Position numbers and translations under genes: made by a program
From: a virus
Taxonomy: Duplodnaviria > Heunggongvirae > Uroviricota > Caudoviricetes
Length of the DNA: 32,400 nucleotides
Reading direction: 5' to 3' (one strand)
Virus record (IMG/VR): IMGVR_UViG_2778261574_000008
Location: 1-32,400 of that record
Shown here: positions 5,958-25,656 of the stretch, piece after piece
Position numbering within the stretch: position 1 is the first letter of the stretch
Layout: every line of letters begins with the position of its first letter
Notes under the pieces: model-generated
The model's input: only the letters and a program-made list of their open reading frames with translations
The model's database searches: none
Told to the model about the DNA's origin: nothing

Positions 5958-6058
5958 ATGATTGTTCTCAGAATGGACACGGCCCAAGGAAATAACGCTG
6001 ATTTAATACTTCGACTCGGGACAAGTTAAGGCATACCCGCATTCCTTCGCGGTCACCA

Positions 6059-6217
6059 TTATGGCGATACCAGAGAGCTTTCTGCGTGTACATGCGTCTC
6101 TGTAACTTGCTCTCCTTCACTGTGGTTGCAAGTGACATGAATATCTCCTTCGTTACCGATTAATTCTTTCATCTGACGAATGAATTCTTCGTCTGACCAG
6201 TTATCTGTAAAACTCAT
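6059..6217 (-). CDS. Hypothetical small protein at the kil position (52 aa from the coupled start)
   Basis: ATG at 6215-6217 overlaps the stop of the cIII-like gene; acidic small protein. Function unknown; the Kil analogy is positional only. Confidence 0.35.
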   Translation of the reverse strand: MSFTDNWSDEEFIRQMKELIGNEGDIHVTCNHSEGEQVTETHVHAESSLVSP

Positions 6218-7191: not shown

Positions 7192-7491
7192 TCAAATAAG
7201 TGGTTTGCTGCCTAATTTCATTTTCTGGCGACCAACACAAGTCACACCCATTTCACTACGTGGCTTGCTGTAGTAAATACGGTTCTGTTTACTCTCGACT
7301 TCTTCTGCCTTCTTGCAGCGAAGGCTTCCGAGTGATGCTGCTTTGTCTGCTCTGACGCAACCAGAGAGCTTTAGCGCAATTTTTCGCGTCAGTCGCTGCT
7401 CTTGCATTGCCTGTTCACGTTGAGCCTGTCTGCGTGCTCTGCGGCGATTTCTGGCGTTATCGTCAGCCAGATATGTAATGACTACTGTCAT
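7192..7491 (-). CDS. N: N-like transcription antitermination protein (phage 21 / P22 gp24 type)
   Basis: About 100 aa from MTVVITY (GGAGG Shine-Dalgarno 6 nt upstream); N-terminal arginine-rich motif NARNRRRARRQAQREQ; C-terminal two-thirds match my recollection of phage 21 N. The ORF-track N-terminal extension is rejected. Confidence 0.65.
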   Translation of the reverse strand: MTVVITYLADDNARNRRRARRQAQREQAMQEQRLTRKIALKLSGCVRADKAASLGSLRCKKAEEVESKQNRIYYSKPRSEMGVTCVGRQKMKLGSKPLI

Positions 7492-7801
7492 GTTGACCTC
7501 CGATGAAACAACTTTGGAATTGATAGTGATTGCAAAGTGGTTTCTGGCCCCTCGAACTGAGGGGCAGAAAGAGCATCTCGCCACCTAATAGGTCAATGCT
7601 CGGATCGAGAGATTTAATTAACCTCGGTTTTGAAGTTATGCATTCACATAAATCCTCCTGTTGCATGTGCAGCATTGGCTGTGTTTGGCGGCTGCATTTC
7701 GCCTATGGAATTGACTTTGGCGGTGACGCGCCGGGTGCTTATCTTCCGGTTGCCGTCGTGCAGCTGCACTTCACGTCACCCCAAAGCCAACTACTCTTTG
7801 G

Positions 7802-14543: not shown

Positions 14544-15192
14544 TGGCAGCAAATACCGAAATGTTTGGGTAGTTGGCGATCTGCACGGATGCTACACGAA
14601 CCTGATGAAAAAACTGGAGACGATAGGATTCGACACCAAAAAAGACCTGCTTATCTCGGTTGGCGATTTGGTCGATCGCGGTACAGAGAACGTTGAATGC
14701 CTGGAATTAATCACATTCCACTGGTTCAGAGCTGTACGTGGAAACCATGAGCAAATGATGATTGATGGCTTATCAGAGCGCGGAAACGTCAATCACTGGC
14801 TGCTTAATGGCGGTGGCTGGTTCTTTAATCTCGATTACGACAAAGAAATTCTGGCTAAAGCTCTTGCCCATAAAGCAGATGAACTTCCGTTAATCATCGA
14901 ACTGGTGAGTAAAGATAAAAAATATGTCATCTGCCACGCCGATTATCCTTGTGACGAATACGAGTTTGGAAAGCCAGTTGATCATCAGCAGGTAATCTGG
15001 AACCGCGAACGAATCAGCAACTCACAAGACGGGATCGTGAAAGAAATCAAAGGCGCGGACACGTTCATCTTTGGTCATACGCCAGCAGTGAAACCACTCA
15101 AGTTTTCCAACCAGATGTATATCGATACCGGCGCAGTGTTCTGCGGAAACCTCACATTGATTCAGGTACAGGGAGAAGGCGCGTGGGCATAA
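14521..15192 (+). CDS. ninI: Ser/Thr protein phosphatase NinI (lambda PPase, calcineurin-like metallophosphatase)
   Basis: 223 aa from MRYYERIDG; metallophosphatase motifs GDLHG, GDLVDRG, GNHE; overlaps the ninH end as in lambda. Confidence 0.85.
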
Positions 15193-15701
15193 GAGAACTA
15201 AACCTCACCAAAGAGCAGCACGAGTGGCTGAATGGCTGGCTTGAACTGTGGGGCGCATGGGTTTATTCAGGTCGTCTGGAAAAGCGCATGAGCAGCGTAA
15301 TAGCGAAGTTCATGGAGAGCGTAGAGCCGGGAAGAGTTATGACAAGGCCAATGTGCAATGATGATGATGGAATGTTGATTTCTCAGGTCGTCGATTCCGT
15401 CATGTACATTGACAAAAAAGCCTTTGGCATCCTCCTCAGCTACTACGCTCATGGTTCATCTAAGCGAGCAATTGCATCCTACTATCACGCGACTGCAAAG
15501 CCACGCAAGATGTGTGGACGTGGTGGCGAGGGATGGAGAAAACCTTCACTGGCAACCTGTAGAAACGAAATTGACGACATCCTGAAAGCGTCATTATTTG
15601 TTTTGTACCAACCAATGCAAAATGCTTTCAAAATGCGTAAACGTGTTGAGAAAGTTAAGCATGTTGCTGTTAAAAACCTTGACATGCAATTAGCCATTTA
15701 G
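15183..15701 (+). CDS. Q: Late-gene antiterminator Q (non-lambda, phage 82 / 21-like type)
   Basis: 172 aa at the Q position between nin and lysis; motifs WGAW and CNDDDG resemble 82-type Q proteins; unlike lambda Q. Confidence 0.65.
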
Positions 15702-15708
15702 CCATAAT
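15679..15708 (+). promoter_or_regulatory. Candidate late promoter pR' overlapping the 3' end of Q
   Basis: Perfect -35 TTGACA (15679-15684), 18-bp spacer, -10 CATAAT (15703-15708). Confidence 0.45.
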
Positions 15709-15719
15709 TAGAGGGTAAG

Positions 15720-15764
15720 CTGCCGTTAGTGACTCTTAAGTTGCAACGGTGGCTTTTTTGTTTG
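15720..15764 (+). terminator. Possible tR'-like terminator (imperfect hairpin plus T-run) downstream of pR'
   Basis: GCCGTT ... AACGGTGGC followed by TTTTTTGTTTG; stem is weak. Confidence 0.3.
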
Positions 15765-16297
15765 CACAACAGGTAAGAGCATTGAACCCGCAGACCTCGC
15801 GGAATTGGTGAAAGGTGCCGCGCAGTGCTCTTATCGTTGTGGTGAATACGCAGGCTGATGCGTTAATCAGGTGAACGAGACACCCGCCGGTCCGTGATAT
15901 GGCACACCGTGCCGGTCATATCTGCCGCGGTTAGGTTTACGAGGATTTCGTAAAGCTGGTCTAGGGTGAAGCCGTGAAAGCGGAGGAAGTAAAACGAGGC
16001 GTCGGTACACGCCTATCGTCATTAAGTCGGAGTTCAGCACCGACCGCCACAACCCAAACTGGGCCGTAGCCACTGGCTATCCTGAATTCATCAGTGATAG
16101 TTATGCTGCGGCTTTCTACACATGACCTTCGTGAAAGTGGGTGGCAGGAGGTTGCGCTAACAACCTCATGCCGTTTTGCCCGTGCATATCGGTCACGAAC
16201 AAATCTGATTACTAAACACAGTAGCCTGGATTTGTTCTATCAGTAATCGACCTTATTCCTAATTAAATAGAGCAAATCCCCTTATTGGGGGTAAGAC

Positions 16298-16621
16298 ATG
16301 AAGATGCCAGAAAAACATGACCTGTTAGCCGCCATTCTCGCGGCAAAGGAACAAGGCATCGGGGCAATCCTTGCGTTTGCAATGGCGTACCTTCGCGGCA
16401 GATATAATGGCGGTGCGTTTACAAAAACAGTAATCGACGCAACGATGTGCGCCATTATCGCCTGGTTCATTCGTGACCTTCTCGACTTCGCCGGACTAAG
16501 TAGCAATCTCGCTTATATAACGAGCGTGTTCATCGGCTACATCGGTACTGACTCGATTGGTTCGCTTATCAAACGCTTCGCTGCTAAAAAAGCCGGAGTA
16601 GAAGATGGTGGAAATCAATAA
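16298..16621 (+). CDS. S: Holin S (class I; dual-start S107 antiholin / S105 holin)
   Basis: 107 aa, essentially identical by recollection to lambda S, including the Met1-Lys2-Met3 dual start. Confidence 0.9.
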
Positions 16622-17081
16622 TCAACGTAAGGCGTTCCTCGATATGCTGGCGTGGTCAGAGGGAACTGATAACGGACGGCAGAAAACCAGAAATCATGGT
16701 TATGACGTCATTGTTGGCGGAGAGCTATTCACTGATTACTCCGATCACCCTCGCAAACTTGTCACGCTAAACCCCAAACTCAAATCAACAGCCGCCGGAC
16801 GTTACCAGCTTCTTTCACGTTGGTGGGATGCATACCGTAAGCAGCTTGGCCTGAAAGACTTCTCTCCGAAAAGCCAGGACGCTGTGGCATTGCAACAGAT
16901 TAAAGAGCGTGGCGCTTTGCCGATGATTGATCGCGGTGATATCCGTCAGGCAATCGACCGTTGCAGCAATATCTGGGCTTCGTTGCCCGGGGCTGGTTAT
17001 GGCCAGTTCGAGCATAAGGCTGACAGCCTGATTGCAAAATTCAAAGAAGCTGGCGGAACGGTAAGAGAGATTGAGGTATGA
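16605..17081 (+). CDS. R: Endolysin R (lytic transglycosylase)
   Basis: 158 aa, essentially identical by recollection to lambda R ([35 protein letters not shown]...). Confidence 0.9.
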
Positions 17082-17515
17082 GCAGAGTAACCGCGATTAT
17101 CTCCGCTCTGGTTATCTGCATCATCGTCTGCCTGTCATGGGCTGTTAATCATTACCGTGATAACGCAATCGCCTACAAAGAGCAGCGCGATAAAGCCACA
17201 TCCATCATCGCTGATATGCAGAAGCGTCAACGTGATGTAGCAGAACTCGACGCCAGATACACAAAGGAGCTTGCTGATGCTAACGCGACTATCGAAAGCC
17301 TCCGTGCTGATGTTTCTGCTGGTCGTAAGCGCCTGCAAGTCGCCGCCACCTGTGCAAAGCCAACGACCGGAGCCAGCAGCATGGGCGATGGAGAAAGCCC
17401 AAGACTTACAGCAGATGCTGAACTCAATTATTACCGTCTCAGAAGTGGAATCGATAGGATAACCGCGCAGGTTAACTACCTGCAGGAATACATCAGGACT
17501 CAGTGCCTGAAATAA
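17078..17515 (+). CDS. Rz: Rz, inner-membrane spanin
   Basis: 145 aa with an N-terminal TM segment and coiled coil, lambda Rz-like. Confidence 0.85.
17271..17462 (+). CDS. Rz1: Rz1, outer-membrane lipoprotein spanin embedded in the +1 frame of Rz
   Basis: Lipobox LLVVSAC, proline-rich mature region, fully nested inside Rz. Confidence 0.7.
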
Positions 17516-17547
17516 TTTTTTTGCAAATCACAAAGTCCATTTAATGA

Positions 17548-17571
17548 GCCTCGCGATGCGGGGCTTTTTTA
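17548..17571 (+). terminator. Intrinsic terminator after the lysis cassette
   Basis: GCCTCGC-GAT-GCGGGGC hairpin followed by TTTTTTA. Confidence 0.5.
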
Positions 17572-17719
17572 CATCTGAATTTCACAGCGCATCTCACGCG
17601 CATATTACATCACCCGAGCCTTTCAGAAAGTTGAGCCTGAGAACTGCCGTATATGGTGGCGACCATCTCGGGACGGCTTTTCTGTGAGACAGGCTCACTT
17701 TCTAAAAGGTAAAGACGCT

Positions 17720-18238
17720 ATGAATCATCAATTGGCTAATCTCGATTTCCGGGACATGGTGGTTGTTTCTGGTGATCGCGTGATCACAACCTCCCGCAAG
17801 GTAGCAGCTTACTTCGACAAGCAGCATCACCACATCATTCAGAAAATCAAAAAGCTAGACTGTTCGGATGAATTTCTAACCAGCAACTTTTCGCGGGTTA
17901 CCTATGAACACAAGGGTAATCAGTATGTTGAATATGAAATTTCCAAAGACGGTGCGATGTACATCATCATGTCGTTTACCGGCAAAAAAGCTGCCGCCAT
18001 CAAAGAGGCGTTTATCAAAGCATTTAATTGGATGCGTGACAGGCTGATGGAGATGGCTCACTCATACCAAAGAGAGCACAACGAGTTAATGCTGGAGTTC
18101 ATGAAGGAAAAGGATGTTGCCAGTATGTCAGGACGCTTGCTGAACCGCTGGGGCAGGATCAAAAAACCTCAACTCATAGCAAGAATCGAAAGGCTTGAGC
18201 AGCAGGCGCAAATATCGATCCCCGGACTGCCAAAGTGA
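17720..18238 (+). CDS. rha: Rha-family phage regulatory protein (moron between lysis and packaging genes)
   Basis: 172 aa from MNHQLANLDFRDMVVVSGDRVITTSRKVAAYFDKQHHHIIQKIKKL, the conserved Rha N-terminal domain pattern; P22 carries rha at the same position. Confidence 0.7.
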   Translation: MNHQLANLDFRDMVVVSGDRVITTSRKVAAYFDKQHHHIIQKIKKLDCSDEFLTSNFSRVTYEHKGNQYVEYEISKDGAMYIIMSFTGKKAAAIKEAFIKAFNWMRDRLMEMAHSYQREHNELMLEFMKEKDVASMSGRLLNRWGRIKKPQLIARIERLEQQAQISIPGLPK

Positions 18239-18589
18239 CCATTCCAAAGCCCATCTACGGGTGGCTTGATAATGAAACCGTGATTTACATCCCCACAATC
18301 CGGGTATGTAAAAGATAGTTCAGGCGAGAACAGATTTAACTAAGTCTGTGCACCACCAGTTGCGGCAGTACCACGAAACAACCCAAGCCAGTAAGTGGGG
18401 AAATAACACTGGCAGCCACTGAAAGATGAACCTCCTGCCTTATGGCAAAAAAGATTCTTTGTGGTGGCGGACTGATGGAAAGACATCGGTTATTGCAGAG
18501 GCCATTCAATGAGTGGTCTCGACAATGGCTTATACCCTACACGGGATAACTTAACTGATATCCCTTTTAACGGATAAACGGAGCCAACA

Positions 18590-18832
18590 ATGGCAGAGAT
18601 TATTCCCATGACTGAAGAACAGAAATTCCAGTTAGAGATTTACAAACTGGTCATGAACCAGAACGCAGCCGCAGAAGAAGCATTTCAGTTCATTGGCACT
18701 GACGAGCTGAAGCTTGAGCTATTCAAAATTCACTTCCAGTCAGGCGGCGCTAATTCAGATATCACGACGCGCACTATCGAAGCGGTGCGTAAATCGAAGG
18801 AAGCGTTAGACCTGTTCACTACCGGAGTGTAA
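18590..18832 (+). CDS. Hypothetical protein (80 aa)
   Basis: ORF upstream of the terminase genes; P22-like phages carry small unknown ORFs here. Confidence 0.5.
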   Translation: MAEIIPMTEEQKFQLEIYKLVMNQNAAAEEAFQFIGTDELKLELFKIHFQSGGANSDITTRTIEAVRKSKEALDLFTTGV

Positions 18833-18835
18833 GAG

Positions 18836-19123
18836 ATGACTGAACAAGAAATGCCGAGATACCAGTGCCACAAAAAAGTTCGCGCCATGAAGATTGGCTC
18901 TATAGAACATAAGCCAAACCCAGATCAGTCTGGTAAGACTGGCTCTTCTAGTTATGGGGCAATTATTCATCCGGATGATAAGAAATACGCAGCATTTGAT
19001 GTTAGCGCGGAATATATCTGTAAGCACCGACCAATGTCTGGAGGCTATTACGTTGTCTATGAGGATGGATATGAATCATATTCTCCTGCTGAGGTATTTG
19101 AGTCTGGATATTCAAAATTATAG
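18836..19123 (+). CDS. Hypothetical protein (95 aa)
   Basis: ORF starting 4 nt after the previous stop. Confidence 0.5.
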   Translation: MTEQEMPRYQCHKKVRAMKIGSIEHKPNPDQSGKTGSSSYGAIIHPDDKKYAAFDVSAEYICKHRPMSGGYYVVYEDGYESYSPAEVFESGYSKL

Positions 19124-19132
19124 GAATCCTCT

Positions 19133-19312
19133 ATGACAAGCGTCGTTGATCTTGGTAAGGAGAAGAAATTCCCAATTACTCAAGAGCTATACGAGAGGCT
19201 GGAAAGCGTCATCCATGATTACGATGGTGAAATCAGTTTATGCGAGGCGATTGGCACACTCGAATTGCTGAAGCAGTCACTGATTGAAGGCGCGAAAGAG
19301 TCCTCAGCCTGA
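19133..19312 (+). CDS. Hypothetical small protein (59 aa), below the ORF-track cutoff
   Basis: ATG 10 nt after the previous stop; acidic helical composition. Confidence 0.35.
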   Translation: MTSVVDLGKEKKFPITQELYERLESVIHDYDGEISLCEAIGTLELLKQSLIEGAKESSA

Positions 19313-19335: not shown

Positions 19336-19758
19336 ATGGCGACTGAACCAAAAGCTGGTCGCCCCTCTGATTATATGCCGGAGGTGGCTGACGATATCTG
19401 CTCGTTGCTTTCTTCTGGCGAAAGTTTGCTGAAAGTATGTAAGCGTCCTGGTATGCCGGATAAGTCCACTGTTTTCCGCTGGTTGGCAAAGCATGAGGAT
19501 TTTCGCGACAAGTACGCGAAGGCAACTGAGGCACGAGCTGATTCTATTTTCGAAGAGATATTCGAAATTGCTGACAATGCGATTCCAGATGCTGCTGAAG
19601 TGGCAAAGGCAAGACTTCGCGTTGATACCCGCAAATGGGCGCTGGCCCGAATGAATCCCCGTAAGTATGGCGACAAGGTAACTAACGAGCTTGTCGGTAA
19701 GGACGGCGGCGCAATTCAGATTGAAACATCACCGATGAGCACTCTGTTCGGAAAATGA
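19336..19758 (+). CDS. Terminase small subunit (Sf6 gp1-type)
   Basis: 140 aa starting MATEPKAGRPSDYMPEVADDI, matching my recollection of Sf6 TerS; overlaps TerL by ATGA. Confidence 0.75.
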   Translation: MATEPKAGRPSDYMPEVADDICSLLSSGESLLKVCKRPGMPDKSTVFRWLAKHEDFRDKYAKATEARADSIFEEIFEIADNAIPDAAEVAKARLRVDTRKWALARMNPRKYGDKVTNELVGKDGGAIQIETSPMSTLFGK

Positions 19759-25626: not shown

Positions 25627-25633
25627 TTTTGGT

Positions 25634-25656
25634 GGGGCTTCGGCCCCATTTTTATT
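25634..25656 (+). terminator. Intrinsic terminator immediately after the coat gene
   Basis: GGGGC-TTCG-GCCCC hairpin followed by ATTTTTATT. Confidence 0.55.

Follow-up and report, generated by a model that had tools for sequence, protein, structure and literature searches.

The stretch of DNA analysed here, called the window throughout, comprises 32,400 nucleotides of a phage of the Caudoviricetes (positions 1 to 32,400 of the IMG/VR record IMGVR_UViG_2778261574_000008), and our subject is a conserved non-coding element on its + strand, which lies in an interval devoid of long open reading frames (ORFs) behind rha, the gene of a Rha-family protein. Judged by its sequence, the phage is a P22-like podovirus (Lederbergvirus) of the HK620/Sf6 type, and the nearest records are those of Escherichia phages Gally, APC_JM3.2, JEP4 and HK620. 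Its late region holds a Q antiterminator gene (15183-15701, Pfam Phage_antitermQ), a strong late promoter-like site at 15679-15708 (11 of 12 consensus matches in a simple sigma-70 scan) and the genes for holin (16298-16621), lysozyme (16605-17081) and Rz (17078-17515). The Sf6-type TerS gene (19336-19758, + strand; Pfam Sf6_terminase PF20901, 151.8 bits) bounds the accessory region on the far side, and the large terminase and portal genes then follow. The segment 17516-19335, with the lysis cassette on one side and the packaging genes on the other, is a variable accessory part of the late operon, since its genes are patchily distributed among 126 related loci (rha in 46 of them, a 59-aa gene in 27 and a 95-aa gene in 5). 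An earlier reading made from the sequence alone, hereafter the sequence-only reading, had proposed accessory cargo of the late operon at this place, and the genes found here fit that proposal.

Several signals elsewhere in the window belong to the same picture. A tR'-type terminator would be expected for the late leader, and a simple scan of the 596-bp interval between Q and holin (15702-16297) gave no + strand terminator. A strong intrinsic-terminator-like site on the + strand stands at 25631-25650 (GGUGGGGCUUCGGCCCCAUU with a T-run), within the late structural operon. Probable nut sites, each a boxA GCUCUUUAACA followed by a boxB hairpin CCCGCCGAAAUGCGGG, were seen at ~7843 (nutL, - strand) and ~8933 (nutR, + strand). 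ARAGORN found no tRNA or tmRNA in the window.

The rha gene (17720-18238, + strand) encodes a regulator or antirepressor-like protein of 172 aa; its ATG at 17720 agrees with the annotation of relatives, and an in-frame GTG lies upstream at 17684. By its profile matches it is a bona fide Rha-family gene (PF09669 Phage_pRha, 83.5 bits with a cut-off of 29.9; TIGR02681, 76.6 bits with a cut-off of 45.95; further PF10549 ORF11CD3 and PHROG 518, the latter at E = 8e-80). It had been proposed that this regulator follows its own terminator and is a moron, with cargo at this place expressed late or independently. A terminator-like hairpin is indeed present at 17546-17576 (+ strand; 9-bp stem with 6 G-C pairs, then TTTTTT), but it stands between Rz and rha, upstream of the latter, and is the terminator of the Rz side rather than rha's own. 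The hairpin found directly after rha (hairpin A, see below) has no T-run, so that rha is not closed by a terminator as a moron would be. In a simple consensus scan, which weak promoters could escape, no sigma-70-like site was detected on the + strand of 17516-18589. Whether rha is expressed in a lysogen apart from the late genes was judged indirectly, from the related prophage BTP1, where it is not: the lysogen transcriptome classes rha as lytic, at 2-36 transcripts per million (TPM), like R and Rz, while the neighbouring true moron pid stands at 40-1100 TPM (PMC7067206 supplement). The orf80 and orf59 genes of BTP1 also track the lysis genes in the lysogen, and are classed as lytic or unknown (PMC7067206 supplement). 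Because the terminator lies upstream, no T-run follows rha and its expression in the BTP1 lysogen is at a lytic level, the moron status of Rha is not supported, and rha is an ordinary accessory gene of the late operon.

Between rha and the next gene extends an interval of 351 bp (18239-18589, hereafter the gap) in which there is no ORF of at least 60 aa, exactly as had been stated; of the ORFs that touch it, the largest on the - strand have 57, 56 and 48 aa, and the largest on the + strand has 35 aa. The absence of ORFs over 351 bp is not statistically remarkable by itself, but the conservation of the gap, its strand-specific folding and its match to an RNA motif exceed chance. The idea that it holds a promoter or a small RNA survives in its second half, as the gap contains a conserved, strand-specific element of RNA type, while no promoter was seen by the sigma-70 scan.

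The three small ORFs announced ahead of TerS (80, 95 and 59 aa) are also in place, and all match phage protein families. The DUF2560 gene (18590-18832, + strand, 80 aa; PHROG 571) corresponds to HK620 hkbM and P22 orf80, and its product matches PF10834 over the full length (147.7 bits, profile positions 1-72 of 72); its 5' untranslated leader (18521-18589, + strand) has a GGAG ribosome-binding site at 18580-18583. The 95-aa ORF (18836-19123, + strand; PHROG 11049, no Pfam match) has rarely been inserted at this place between the DUF2560 gene and the 59-aa gene, and HK620 and P22 lack it. The 59-aa ORF (19133-19312, + strand; PHROG 3546) has the size and position of HK620 hkbN and P22 orf59c. 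All three are ordinary accessory genes of the late operon and not self-contained morons. Searches with the four proteins (Rha and the 80-, 95- and 59-aa products) gave no defence-system or solved-structure relatives of significance.

Kinship of the gap element with Proteo-phage-1 RNA

No known RNA family is found in the whole window at the Rfam gathering thresholds. In a relaxed scan, the Rfam model RF03044 (Proteo-phage-1) matches 18354-18417 on the + strand with 17.4 bits, below its gathering cut-off of 42 bits, and the score is low because the family's 5' hairpin is missing here. The other relaxed-threshold hits (mir-10, snoU25, CRISPR-DR15 and others) were rejected as short chance matches. 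Proteo-phage-1 RNA is an orphan family of structured RNAs (Weinberg et al. 2017, PMC5737381). In Rfam it is listed among the sRNA genes and no function is given for it; its members come so far mostly from Pseudomonas prophages and metagenomic contigs, and a full-text literature search found no paper that names it.

In the alignment produced by cmscan, the stretches AAGCC.G..AGUG and GAAA.AACAC.GGCAGCC are nearly identical, and a deletion takes out the family's 5' stem-loop (GCCAGG...CCUGG enclosing an inner hairpin, one nucleotide from the second hairpin). The sole candidate stem in the 20 nt upstream, CGG 18363-18365 with CCG 18371-18373, is disrupted by common variants at 18372 and 18373. 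What the window retains is a hairpin-pseudoknot motif of 44 nt at 18376-18419 (+ strand), made of a stem (CCC 18382-18384 with GGG 18398-18400), a loop AAGCCAGUAAGU and a tail AACACUGGCAGCC. The conserved loop of RF03044, AAGCCGGNNAGUG, is recognized here in CCC-AAGCCAGUAAGU-GGG at 18382-18400, on a stem of only 3 bp, and its 3' tail, AAAACACCGGCAGCC, in AAUAACACUGGCAGCC at 18402-18417. The loop would pair with the downstream tail, GCCAG 18387-18391 with CUGGC 18409-18413 on the + strand, to form an H-type pseudoknot; this helix is proposed in the present analysis, whereas the consensus printed by Rfam has the tail unpaired.

A degenerate pattern of the motif matches the window once and has no match in 100 shuffles. 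The loci fetched with the pattern of the two nearly identical stretches comprise 59 from IMG/VR and 30 species genomes, and 15 of 16 tested are bona fide RF03044 members scoring 71-86 bits, mostly from Pseudomonas prophages. Twenty of the fetched sequences, none of them enterobacterial, served to build a covariance model (R1), which matches the window a single time, at 18376-18419 on the + strand (33 bits, E ~4e-7; next best, 12 bits). R1 also matches P22 (40194-40239), HK97 (38743-38786), HK022 (39761-39804), HK620 (19020-19063) and phage L (39441-39484).

Covariation was assessed in an alignment of 101 hits, 38 of them distinct. Hairpin and pseudoknot together show 97.7% standard pairs, compared with 85.6% in shuffles, and 44 cells changed on both sides, compared with 12.5 in shuffles; none of 500 shuffles reaches 44. 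Slid controls, in which the partner was moved by 1-3 columns, were paired at 12-54%. Changes on both sides occur in four of the five hairpin pairs, and the pseudoknot, which reads GCCAG/CUGGC here and GCCGG/CCGGC in canonical members, has 10 double-change cells and is paired at 99.5%. At its variable pair, 26 sequences have G-C, 10 have A-U and one has G-U, the A-U form being carried by the enterobacterial family, by a metagenome-assembled genome (MAG) of Crocinitomicaceae and by Acidithiobacillus. Pyrimidine-purine variants of this pair were not found in IMG/VR. Since the wobble pairs are valid only on the + strand, the folding is assigned to that strand. By these comparisons the core at 18376-18419 is shown to be homologous to the 3' half of Proteo-phage-1, with covarying hairpin and pseudoknot. 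Further homology in the 3' half had been suspected by eye (GGCGGAC, a hairpin with a GAAAGA loop, UAUU.CAG.GGCC), and it was dropped when a second model, R2, built from 20 Pseudomonas sequences, gave the window only 5.3 bits there and scored higher elsewhere.

The gap element is a divergent, trimmed relative of a known but functionally orphan RNA family, so far unnoticed in P22, HK97, HK022 and Sf6. Both share the hairpin with its near-invariant loop AAGCC(G/A)GNNAGUG followed by the tail AACAC(C/U)GGCAGCC, and both reside in phages or prophages of Proteobacteria, inside operons and with no evident promoter; the window is a P22-like phage, and the canonical members lie in Pseudomonas prophages. 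The window element differs in that it has no 5' stem-loop, a second hairpin with a 3-bp stem and a different 3' domain. Its place is also behind the lysis genes, whereas the family occurs either flanked by a Q-like gene and holin, as type i, or within the early-left operon, as type ii.

The Pseudomonas copies of type i are ~245 nt long and lie between genes for NinG and a Q-like protein on one side and holin on the other. Their start often follows within a few bases upon a strong terminator, the stop codon of an ORF or a tRNA, and they end with an intrinsic terminator of their own. Copies of type ii have a cI-like repressor on one side and recT/exo/ssb on the other. More distant copies occupy other early or conjugative-element contexts, as in L212, where a relaxase precedes the element and a ParB-methylase gene follows it. 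No conserved promoter was found ahead of the wider-family copies, and no neighbouring gene is common to the wider motif family, whose contexts differ. tRNA genes adjoin the element in L180 (10 nt apart) and L130 (~120 nt). In one Pseudomonas locus (L189, Pseudomonas sp. JDS08PS003), a degenerate copy at 5995-6110, in which the pseudoknot helix is kept via two wobble pairs, lies 1.2 kb from an intact copy at 7250-7500 directly before holin; the two copies are separated by a 1.1-kb insert, which resembles a moron that entered the RNA locus. In two further Pseudomonas prophages, oriented with the motif on the + strand (L145, 5462-5893; L150, 7961-8876), a hicA/hicB-like toxin-antitoxin pair on the opposite strand was seen between the RNA and holin. 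This pair was identified by eye from the sequences, and the hicB-like gene shares its end with the 3' end of the RNA, the two overlapping.

Folding, constraint and mosaic spread of the gap block

Around the 44-nt motif we delimit a conserved non-coding RNA module, the core of the gap, at 18355-18525 (+ strand). It comprises a predicted closing helix (18365-18369 with 18492-18496), the pseudoknot motif, two hairpins and hairpin C. The longer of the two predicted hairpins, in the middle of the module (18415-18468, + strand), would expose CCUCC at 18431-18435, and the shorter one (18470-18491, + strand) would carry a GAAAGA loop. The CCUCC, which resembles an anti-Shine-Dalgarno sequence, falls into a predicted unpaired internal loop and varies in only a few of 104 distinct members. 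A nut-like reading of the GAAAGA hairpin was rejected, since the gap has UUCUUUG and the GAAAGA loop, unlike the boxA and boxB of this phage. The z-scores of folding are -4.68 (+ strand) vs -1.55 (- strand) for the whole gap, and -4.30 (+ strand; 0 of 200 shuffles) vs -1.77 (- strand) for the core 18363-18525. Established is the hairpin-pseudoknot of 44 nt within a conserved, stably folding block of ~170 nt, not a full secondary structure.

Sequence diversity was computed on the 69 sequences that share the whole stretch. It amounts to 0.021 in the pseudoknot motif, 0.022 in the middle hairpin and 0.015 in the DUF2560 leader 18521-18589; the third, first and second codon positions of DUF2560 give 0.056, 0.007 and 0.001, respectively. 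In the same sequences, the core is thus 2.6-fold less diverse than the third codon positions next to it, and this indicates that purifying selection of moderate strength acts on the non-coding sequence. Covariation within the enterobacterial family is uninformative, as its 104 distinct sequences are too alike (covariation term -0.17), and changes in hairpin C are mainly one-sided and compatible with pairing, e.g., G-U to A-U in ~40 sequences.

A small protein as the conserved entity was considered and discarded. The 35-aa ORF on the + strand (18442-18549) has lost its ATG in 6 members and is frameshifted in an A-run in 4, the variable sites of the - strand ORF fall on all three codon positions with no third-position excess, and no ORF of the gap has a Pfam match. 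Parts of the element are nevertheless annotated as coding in some phages. P22 orf25 (L005, 1649-1726) starts in the loop of hairpin C, with a start and a frame that differ from those of the 35-aa ORF. The orf118 of ST64T and phage L (L006, 1648-2004) is a DUF2560 homologue at residues 39-118 (43% identity) preceded by 38 N-terminal residues read from the RNA element. Like orf25, this extension has the look of an annotation artefact.

Searching with the gap alone returned 200 phage records at 80-99% identity, most of them without any annotation under the match and none with an RNA annotated there. P22-like carriers include P22, L, ST64T-like phages, epsilon34, Sf6, HK620 and CUS-3; among lambdoid siphoviruses, which have quite different packaging systems, the carriers include HK97, HK022 and the mEp phages, where the block lies near the right genome end, with the lysis genes to one side and cos to the other. 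A 176-nt core occurs in 1121 of 5426 complete E. coli genomes (~21%), and none of the 12 matches listed coincides with an annotated feature. In 81 of the 82 loci with enough flank, Rz precedes the element by 0.5-1.8 kb and shares its strand, and the flanking homologues of the element are never on the opposite strand in the 126 related loci. In 96 of these, a co-oriented DUF2560-family gene lies downstream, starting at a median of 117 nt past the anchor. The genes that precede the same core are different ones: rha, hkbL, HK97 gp73, or Rz directly. Nearly identical copies of the enterobacterial form also turned up in MAGs with the labels Nanosynbacter, Bacillota and Collinsella (L199, L200, L207, L209 and L211), into which contigs of enterobacterial phages were probably binned by mistake.

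Local comparison of 121 distinct copies gave the anatomy of the region. The mosaic order is hairpin A, an optional segment of 67 nt, and the core, which runs from 18355 or 18363 to 18541, 18548, 18578 or 18598, usually followed by DUF2560. Hairpin A (18246-18268, + strand; AAAGCCCAUC-UAC-GGGUGGCUU) is an inverted repeat placed directly after the stop codon of the upstream gene, whichever gene that is, and resembles both the Rz terminator hairpin and hairpin C. The optional segment (18288-18354, + strand), with a hairpin of its own at ~18284-18313, is confined to the subgroup of the window and HK620 and absent from most carriers. Hairpin C (18498-18520, + strand; GAGGCCAUUC-AAU-GAGUGGUCUC) closes the module and, like hairpin A, has no T-run. 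Identity to carriers whose upstream rha allele is only ~79% identical rises abruptly to 96-99% at the core. Three related hairpins flank rha and the RNA core, at 17547-17567 (AGCCUCGC..GCGGGGCU), 18246-18268 (AAGCCCAUC..GGGUGGCUU) and 18498-18520 (GAGGCCAUUC..GAGUGGUCUC), and hairpins A and C are each followed by GA(U/C)AAUG. In Stx phages, which also retain the sub-block 18492-18578, a hybrid of hairpins A and C is found and the core is deleted, and this suggests that recombination between the similar hairpins reshuffles the segment. Insertions within the region are known too: ~415 extra bases (gene 66) in Sf6 and IME10, and the opposite-strand pid moron right after the core in P22 and BTP1.

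Transcription, proposed role and rival explanations

In lambdoid phages, late genes are transcribed by a Q-modified polymerase that starts at the late promoter and passes terminators through the entire late operon. We consider it an even chance (probability about 0.5) that the gap holds an accessory non-coding RNA module, lying on the late-operon strand and transcribed with the Q-antiterminated late operon. The module would have no promoter of its own, and Q-modified polymerase coming from the late promoter (~15679-15708) would pass the terminator 17546-17576 into it; such late transcription through the terminator is proposed because no promoter was seen and the element always has the orientation of the operon. 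Its RNA would belong to the lytic phase and not to the lysogen. This agrees with the BTP1 lysogen, where rha, orf80 and orf59 stand at lytic-gene levels and no non-coding RNA was called at the locus: the list has no entry between rha and pid, the homologous core being at ~388964-389150, and the nearest entries are 386640-386959 and 397372-397660 (PMC7067206 supplement). The lysogen-expressed gap transcript that the sequence-only reading had made its test is accordingly absent from the BTP1 list. Since the element is most simply part of a late, lytic transcript, that test would probably "refute" the wrong idea and yet miss the real element; the relevant transcript is to be sought in lytic, not lysogen, RNA.

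Phage tRNA genes are released from operon transcripts. The module may be made or kept as a discrete stable RNA too, bracketed by hairpins in most carriers; this is suggested by the hairpin bracket (A and C here, true terminators in Pseudomonas), by the tRNA neighbours and by the absence of a fixed downstream gene. We infer a discrete RNA that would act on some partner through its invariant unpaired nucleotides, and it would be accessory rather than essential. Going further, it is conceivable, though we hold it to be doubtful, that the hairpin-pseudoknot is the functional heart of a widespread class of phage non-coding RNAs that are made late and bind a specific host or phage factor. A late RNA of this kind could, for instance, be a decoy for some protein of defence or RNA processing, or it could modulate the machinery of transcription or translation. 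If this is true, the function of the RNA would become genetically accessible for the first time, through P22, HK97, HK022, Sf6 and a fifth of the complete E. coli genomes. The Proteo-phage-1 family in any case gains tractable model systems, whose RNA is routinely mapped and in which deletions and compensatory mutations are readily made. The minimal conserved unit is also defined, a hairpin-pseudoknot of 44 nt, which should guide searches for a binding partner, and the annotation of P22 orf25 and of the N-terminal extension of orf118 in ST64T and phage L is corrected.

Several points weigh against the module as proposed. That the RNA is discrete was deduced and not read from lytic-growth transcripts of the locus. 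The 5' stem-loop of RF03044 is absent and the Rfam score is under the cut-off, R2 (5.3 bits) left the resemblance of the 3' part to the Pseudomonas RNAs unconfirmed, and the helices predicted outside the 44-nt core come from energy calculation alone. The hairpin bracket is not universal, as P22-type members lack hairpin A, and the high identity among these mosaic phages is partly a matter of recent exchange and not of selection. P22 with a cassette in place of orf25, pid and orf80 is normal in growth, lysogenisation and virion production; the cassette certainly removes hairpin C and whatever lies beyond it, and it may spare the pseudoknot core at 40194-40239. Finally, a cis-regulatory leader would explain the close linkage to DUF2560 (96 of 126 loci) just as well.

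Such a leader, in which the structured RNA would be a long 5' untranslated region of the DUF2560 gene controlling its translation or mRNA stability, is in our opinion unlikely, though it has more than its linkage to recommend it. CCUCC 18431-18435 or the hairpins could, for instance, mask or expose GGAG 18580-18583, possibly upon binding of a ligand or protein to the pseudoknot. The DUF2560-family gene is co-oriented with the element and close to it (median 117 nt past the anchor); phage L combines a DUF2560 allele of only 43% identity with an element of ~95% identity, the untranslated region 18521-18589 has a low diversity (0.015), and the distant members L193, L212 and L217 each have a ribosome-binding site and an ORF within ~100-150 nt. 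However, HK97 keeps only a fragment of the DUF2560 gene and has gp74 behind the core, the pid moron separates core and DUF2560 in P22, another gene lies downstream in L196 and L199, and the Pseudomonas members precede a terminator and hicAB or holin. The complementarity of CCUCC to the ribosome-binding site is also a mere 4 nt, and no downstream gene family is common to the wider motif family. We give little credence to a signal acting in cis on the polymerase that transcribes it, i.e., a processive antiterminator like HK022 put or a recruitment site like lambda nut, which would help the long late operon to be transcribed past terminators further on. It is true that type i copies stand between a Q-like gene and holin, directly before a terminator that needs to be read through, that type ii copies lie in the early-left operon, that the enterobacterial element is always operon-oriented, and that the late operon of the window has an internal + strand terminator (25631-25650); moreover, the two hairpins of the Rfam model, one nucleotide apart, look superficially put-like (PMC9378689). 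But this phage already has Q (Phage_antitermQ) and a late promoter ~2.7 kb upstream, and many Pseudomonas copies sit directly behind a strong terminator, where the polymerase must already be termination-resistant. The nut sites of the phage (boxA GCUCUUUAACA, boxB CCCGCCGAAAUGCGGG) are unlike the gap hairpins, R1 finds nothing in the early region of HK022 that holds putL and putR (locus L187), and the P22 strain with the cassette in this region makes normal virions.

The clustering of homology breakpoints at the block edges (18287, 18345-18365, 18541/18548, 18578 and 18598) raises the further question of whether there is an RNA function at all. The block could be a relic or linker at a mosaic junction, whose identity is kept by frequent homologous recombination, with the hairpins at 17547, 18246 and 18498 serving merely for recombination or as junctions. 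The insertions inside it (Sf6 gene 66, P22 pid), the deletions between hairpins A and C in Stx phages, the 95-99% identity of flanking modules in many phages and the dispensability of the region in P22 would all suit this explanation. Yet a mere linker would hardly account for a 44-nt core common to phages of Pseudomonas, Acidithiobacillus and other distant hosts with no other nucleotide similarity, for the compensatory changes in both helices, for a core diversity 2.6-fold below that of the adjacent third codon positions or for the strand-specific fold, and we regard it as improbable. The same helices might instead form in the + strand of single-stranded DNA, while the phage replicates by rolling circle or its DNA enters the cell, and provide a site for priming or for the loading of a protein. 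Covariation cannot separate RNA from DNA of the same strand, and L212 lies in a conjugative-element-like context; but the helices contain G-U wobble pairs, whose G-T counterparts are much weaker in DNA, the enterobacterial element is consistently co-oriented with transcription, some members adjoin tRNA genes and the Pseudomonas members have terminator-type ends, so that a DNA element seems very improbable. Least credible of all is a small protein encoded in the gap, by the 35-aa ORF of the + strand or the 48- and 57-aa ORFs of the - strand. These ORFs do exist, and parts of the element are annotated as coding in P22 (orf25), ST64T and phage L (orf118) and epsilon34; the lost ATG at 18442, the frameshifts, the missing third-position excess and Pfam match, the other start and frame of orf25 and the composite nature of orf118 (a DUF2560 homologue with a 38-residue extension) leave this explanation with hardly any ground.

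Comparison with known phage systems and further observations

For the Pseudomonas copies, lambda 6S RNA and StxS, the short pR'-tR' leader transcript of Stx phages, are what we take to be the apt comparators. Like these, the Pseudomonas relatives stand after a Q-like gene and end in an intrinsic terminator just before holin. The window element, in contrast, lies ~2.7 kb past the late promoter, after S, R, Rz and rha, and has no T-run terminator. It does not occupy the place of a late leader, which would run from the late promoter to a terminator before holin, as it begins at 18355 and holin at 16298. It also has no sequence relation to the lambda leader, and the Rfam scan of the window gave no known family.

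The put sites of HK022 are likewise cis-encoded structured RNAs in long phage operons (PMC9378689). They differ in that they lie just downstream of the early promoters, whereas HK022 carries the element in its own late region (NC_002166, 39761-39804), and put has no reported pseudoknot (PMC9378689). A put-type RNA, which would bind the zinc-binding domain of the RNA polymerase beta' subunit and suppress termination, was rejected, as R1 matches HK022 only at 39761-39804 and not in the early region; this is a weak test, in which the motif model was used instead of a put model. AgvB and AsxR are small non-coding RNAs at conserved positions in lambdoid prophages, but they measure 51-60 nt, bind Hfq and form convergent pairs at a moron site just downstream of pR' (PMC4104026). 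A link to them was rejected as well, because theirs is another locus (the pR' moron site and not the interval between Rz and terminase) and no sequence relation was seen.

P22 pid shares the accessory segment with the element and lies directly 3' of the conserved core in P22 and BTP1. Encoded on the opposite strand, it is a genuine moron that has a promoter (transcription start site at 40880) and a terminator of its own and is expressed in the lysogen or carrier state (Cenens 2013, PMC3573128; Wolput 2022, PMC8835761). The window differs in having no pid, and the conserved core of P22 (40181-40368) is outside the pid transcript. As regards the tRNA clusters that phages carry in leaders of late operons, these too are promoterless RNA genes inside operon transcripts, and canonical relatives of the element adjoin tRNAs; however, the window has no tRNA and the fold of the element is not tRNA-like.

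A second conserved non-coding stretch lies upstream of rha. This leader (17547-17719, + strand) consists of the terminator-like hairpin, which forms its 5' edge, and ~140 nt, and the homology blocks of many phages begin exactly at 17547. It precedes rha in the window and the unrelated KilA-N gene hkbK in HK620. Within it, 17 nt at 17643-17659 are complementary (82%) to 18353-18369, the 5' edge of the RNA core, and would loop out rha if the pairing is real; it may be due to chance, as the 5' edge of the core differs in most other carriers. In JEP4, a 55-aa ORF on the - strand is annotated inside the stretch equivalent to 17547-17719.

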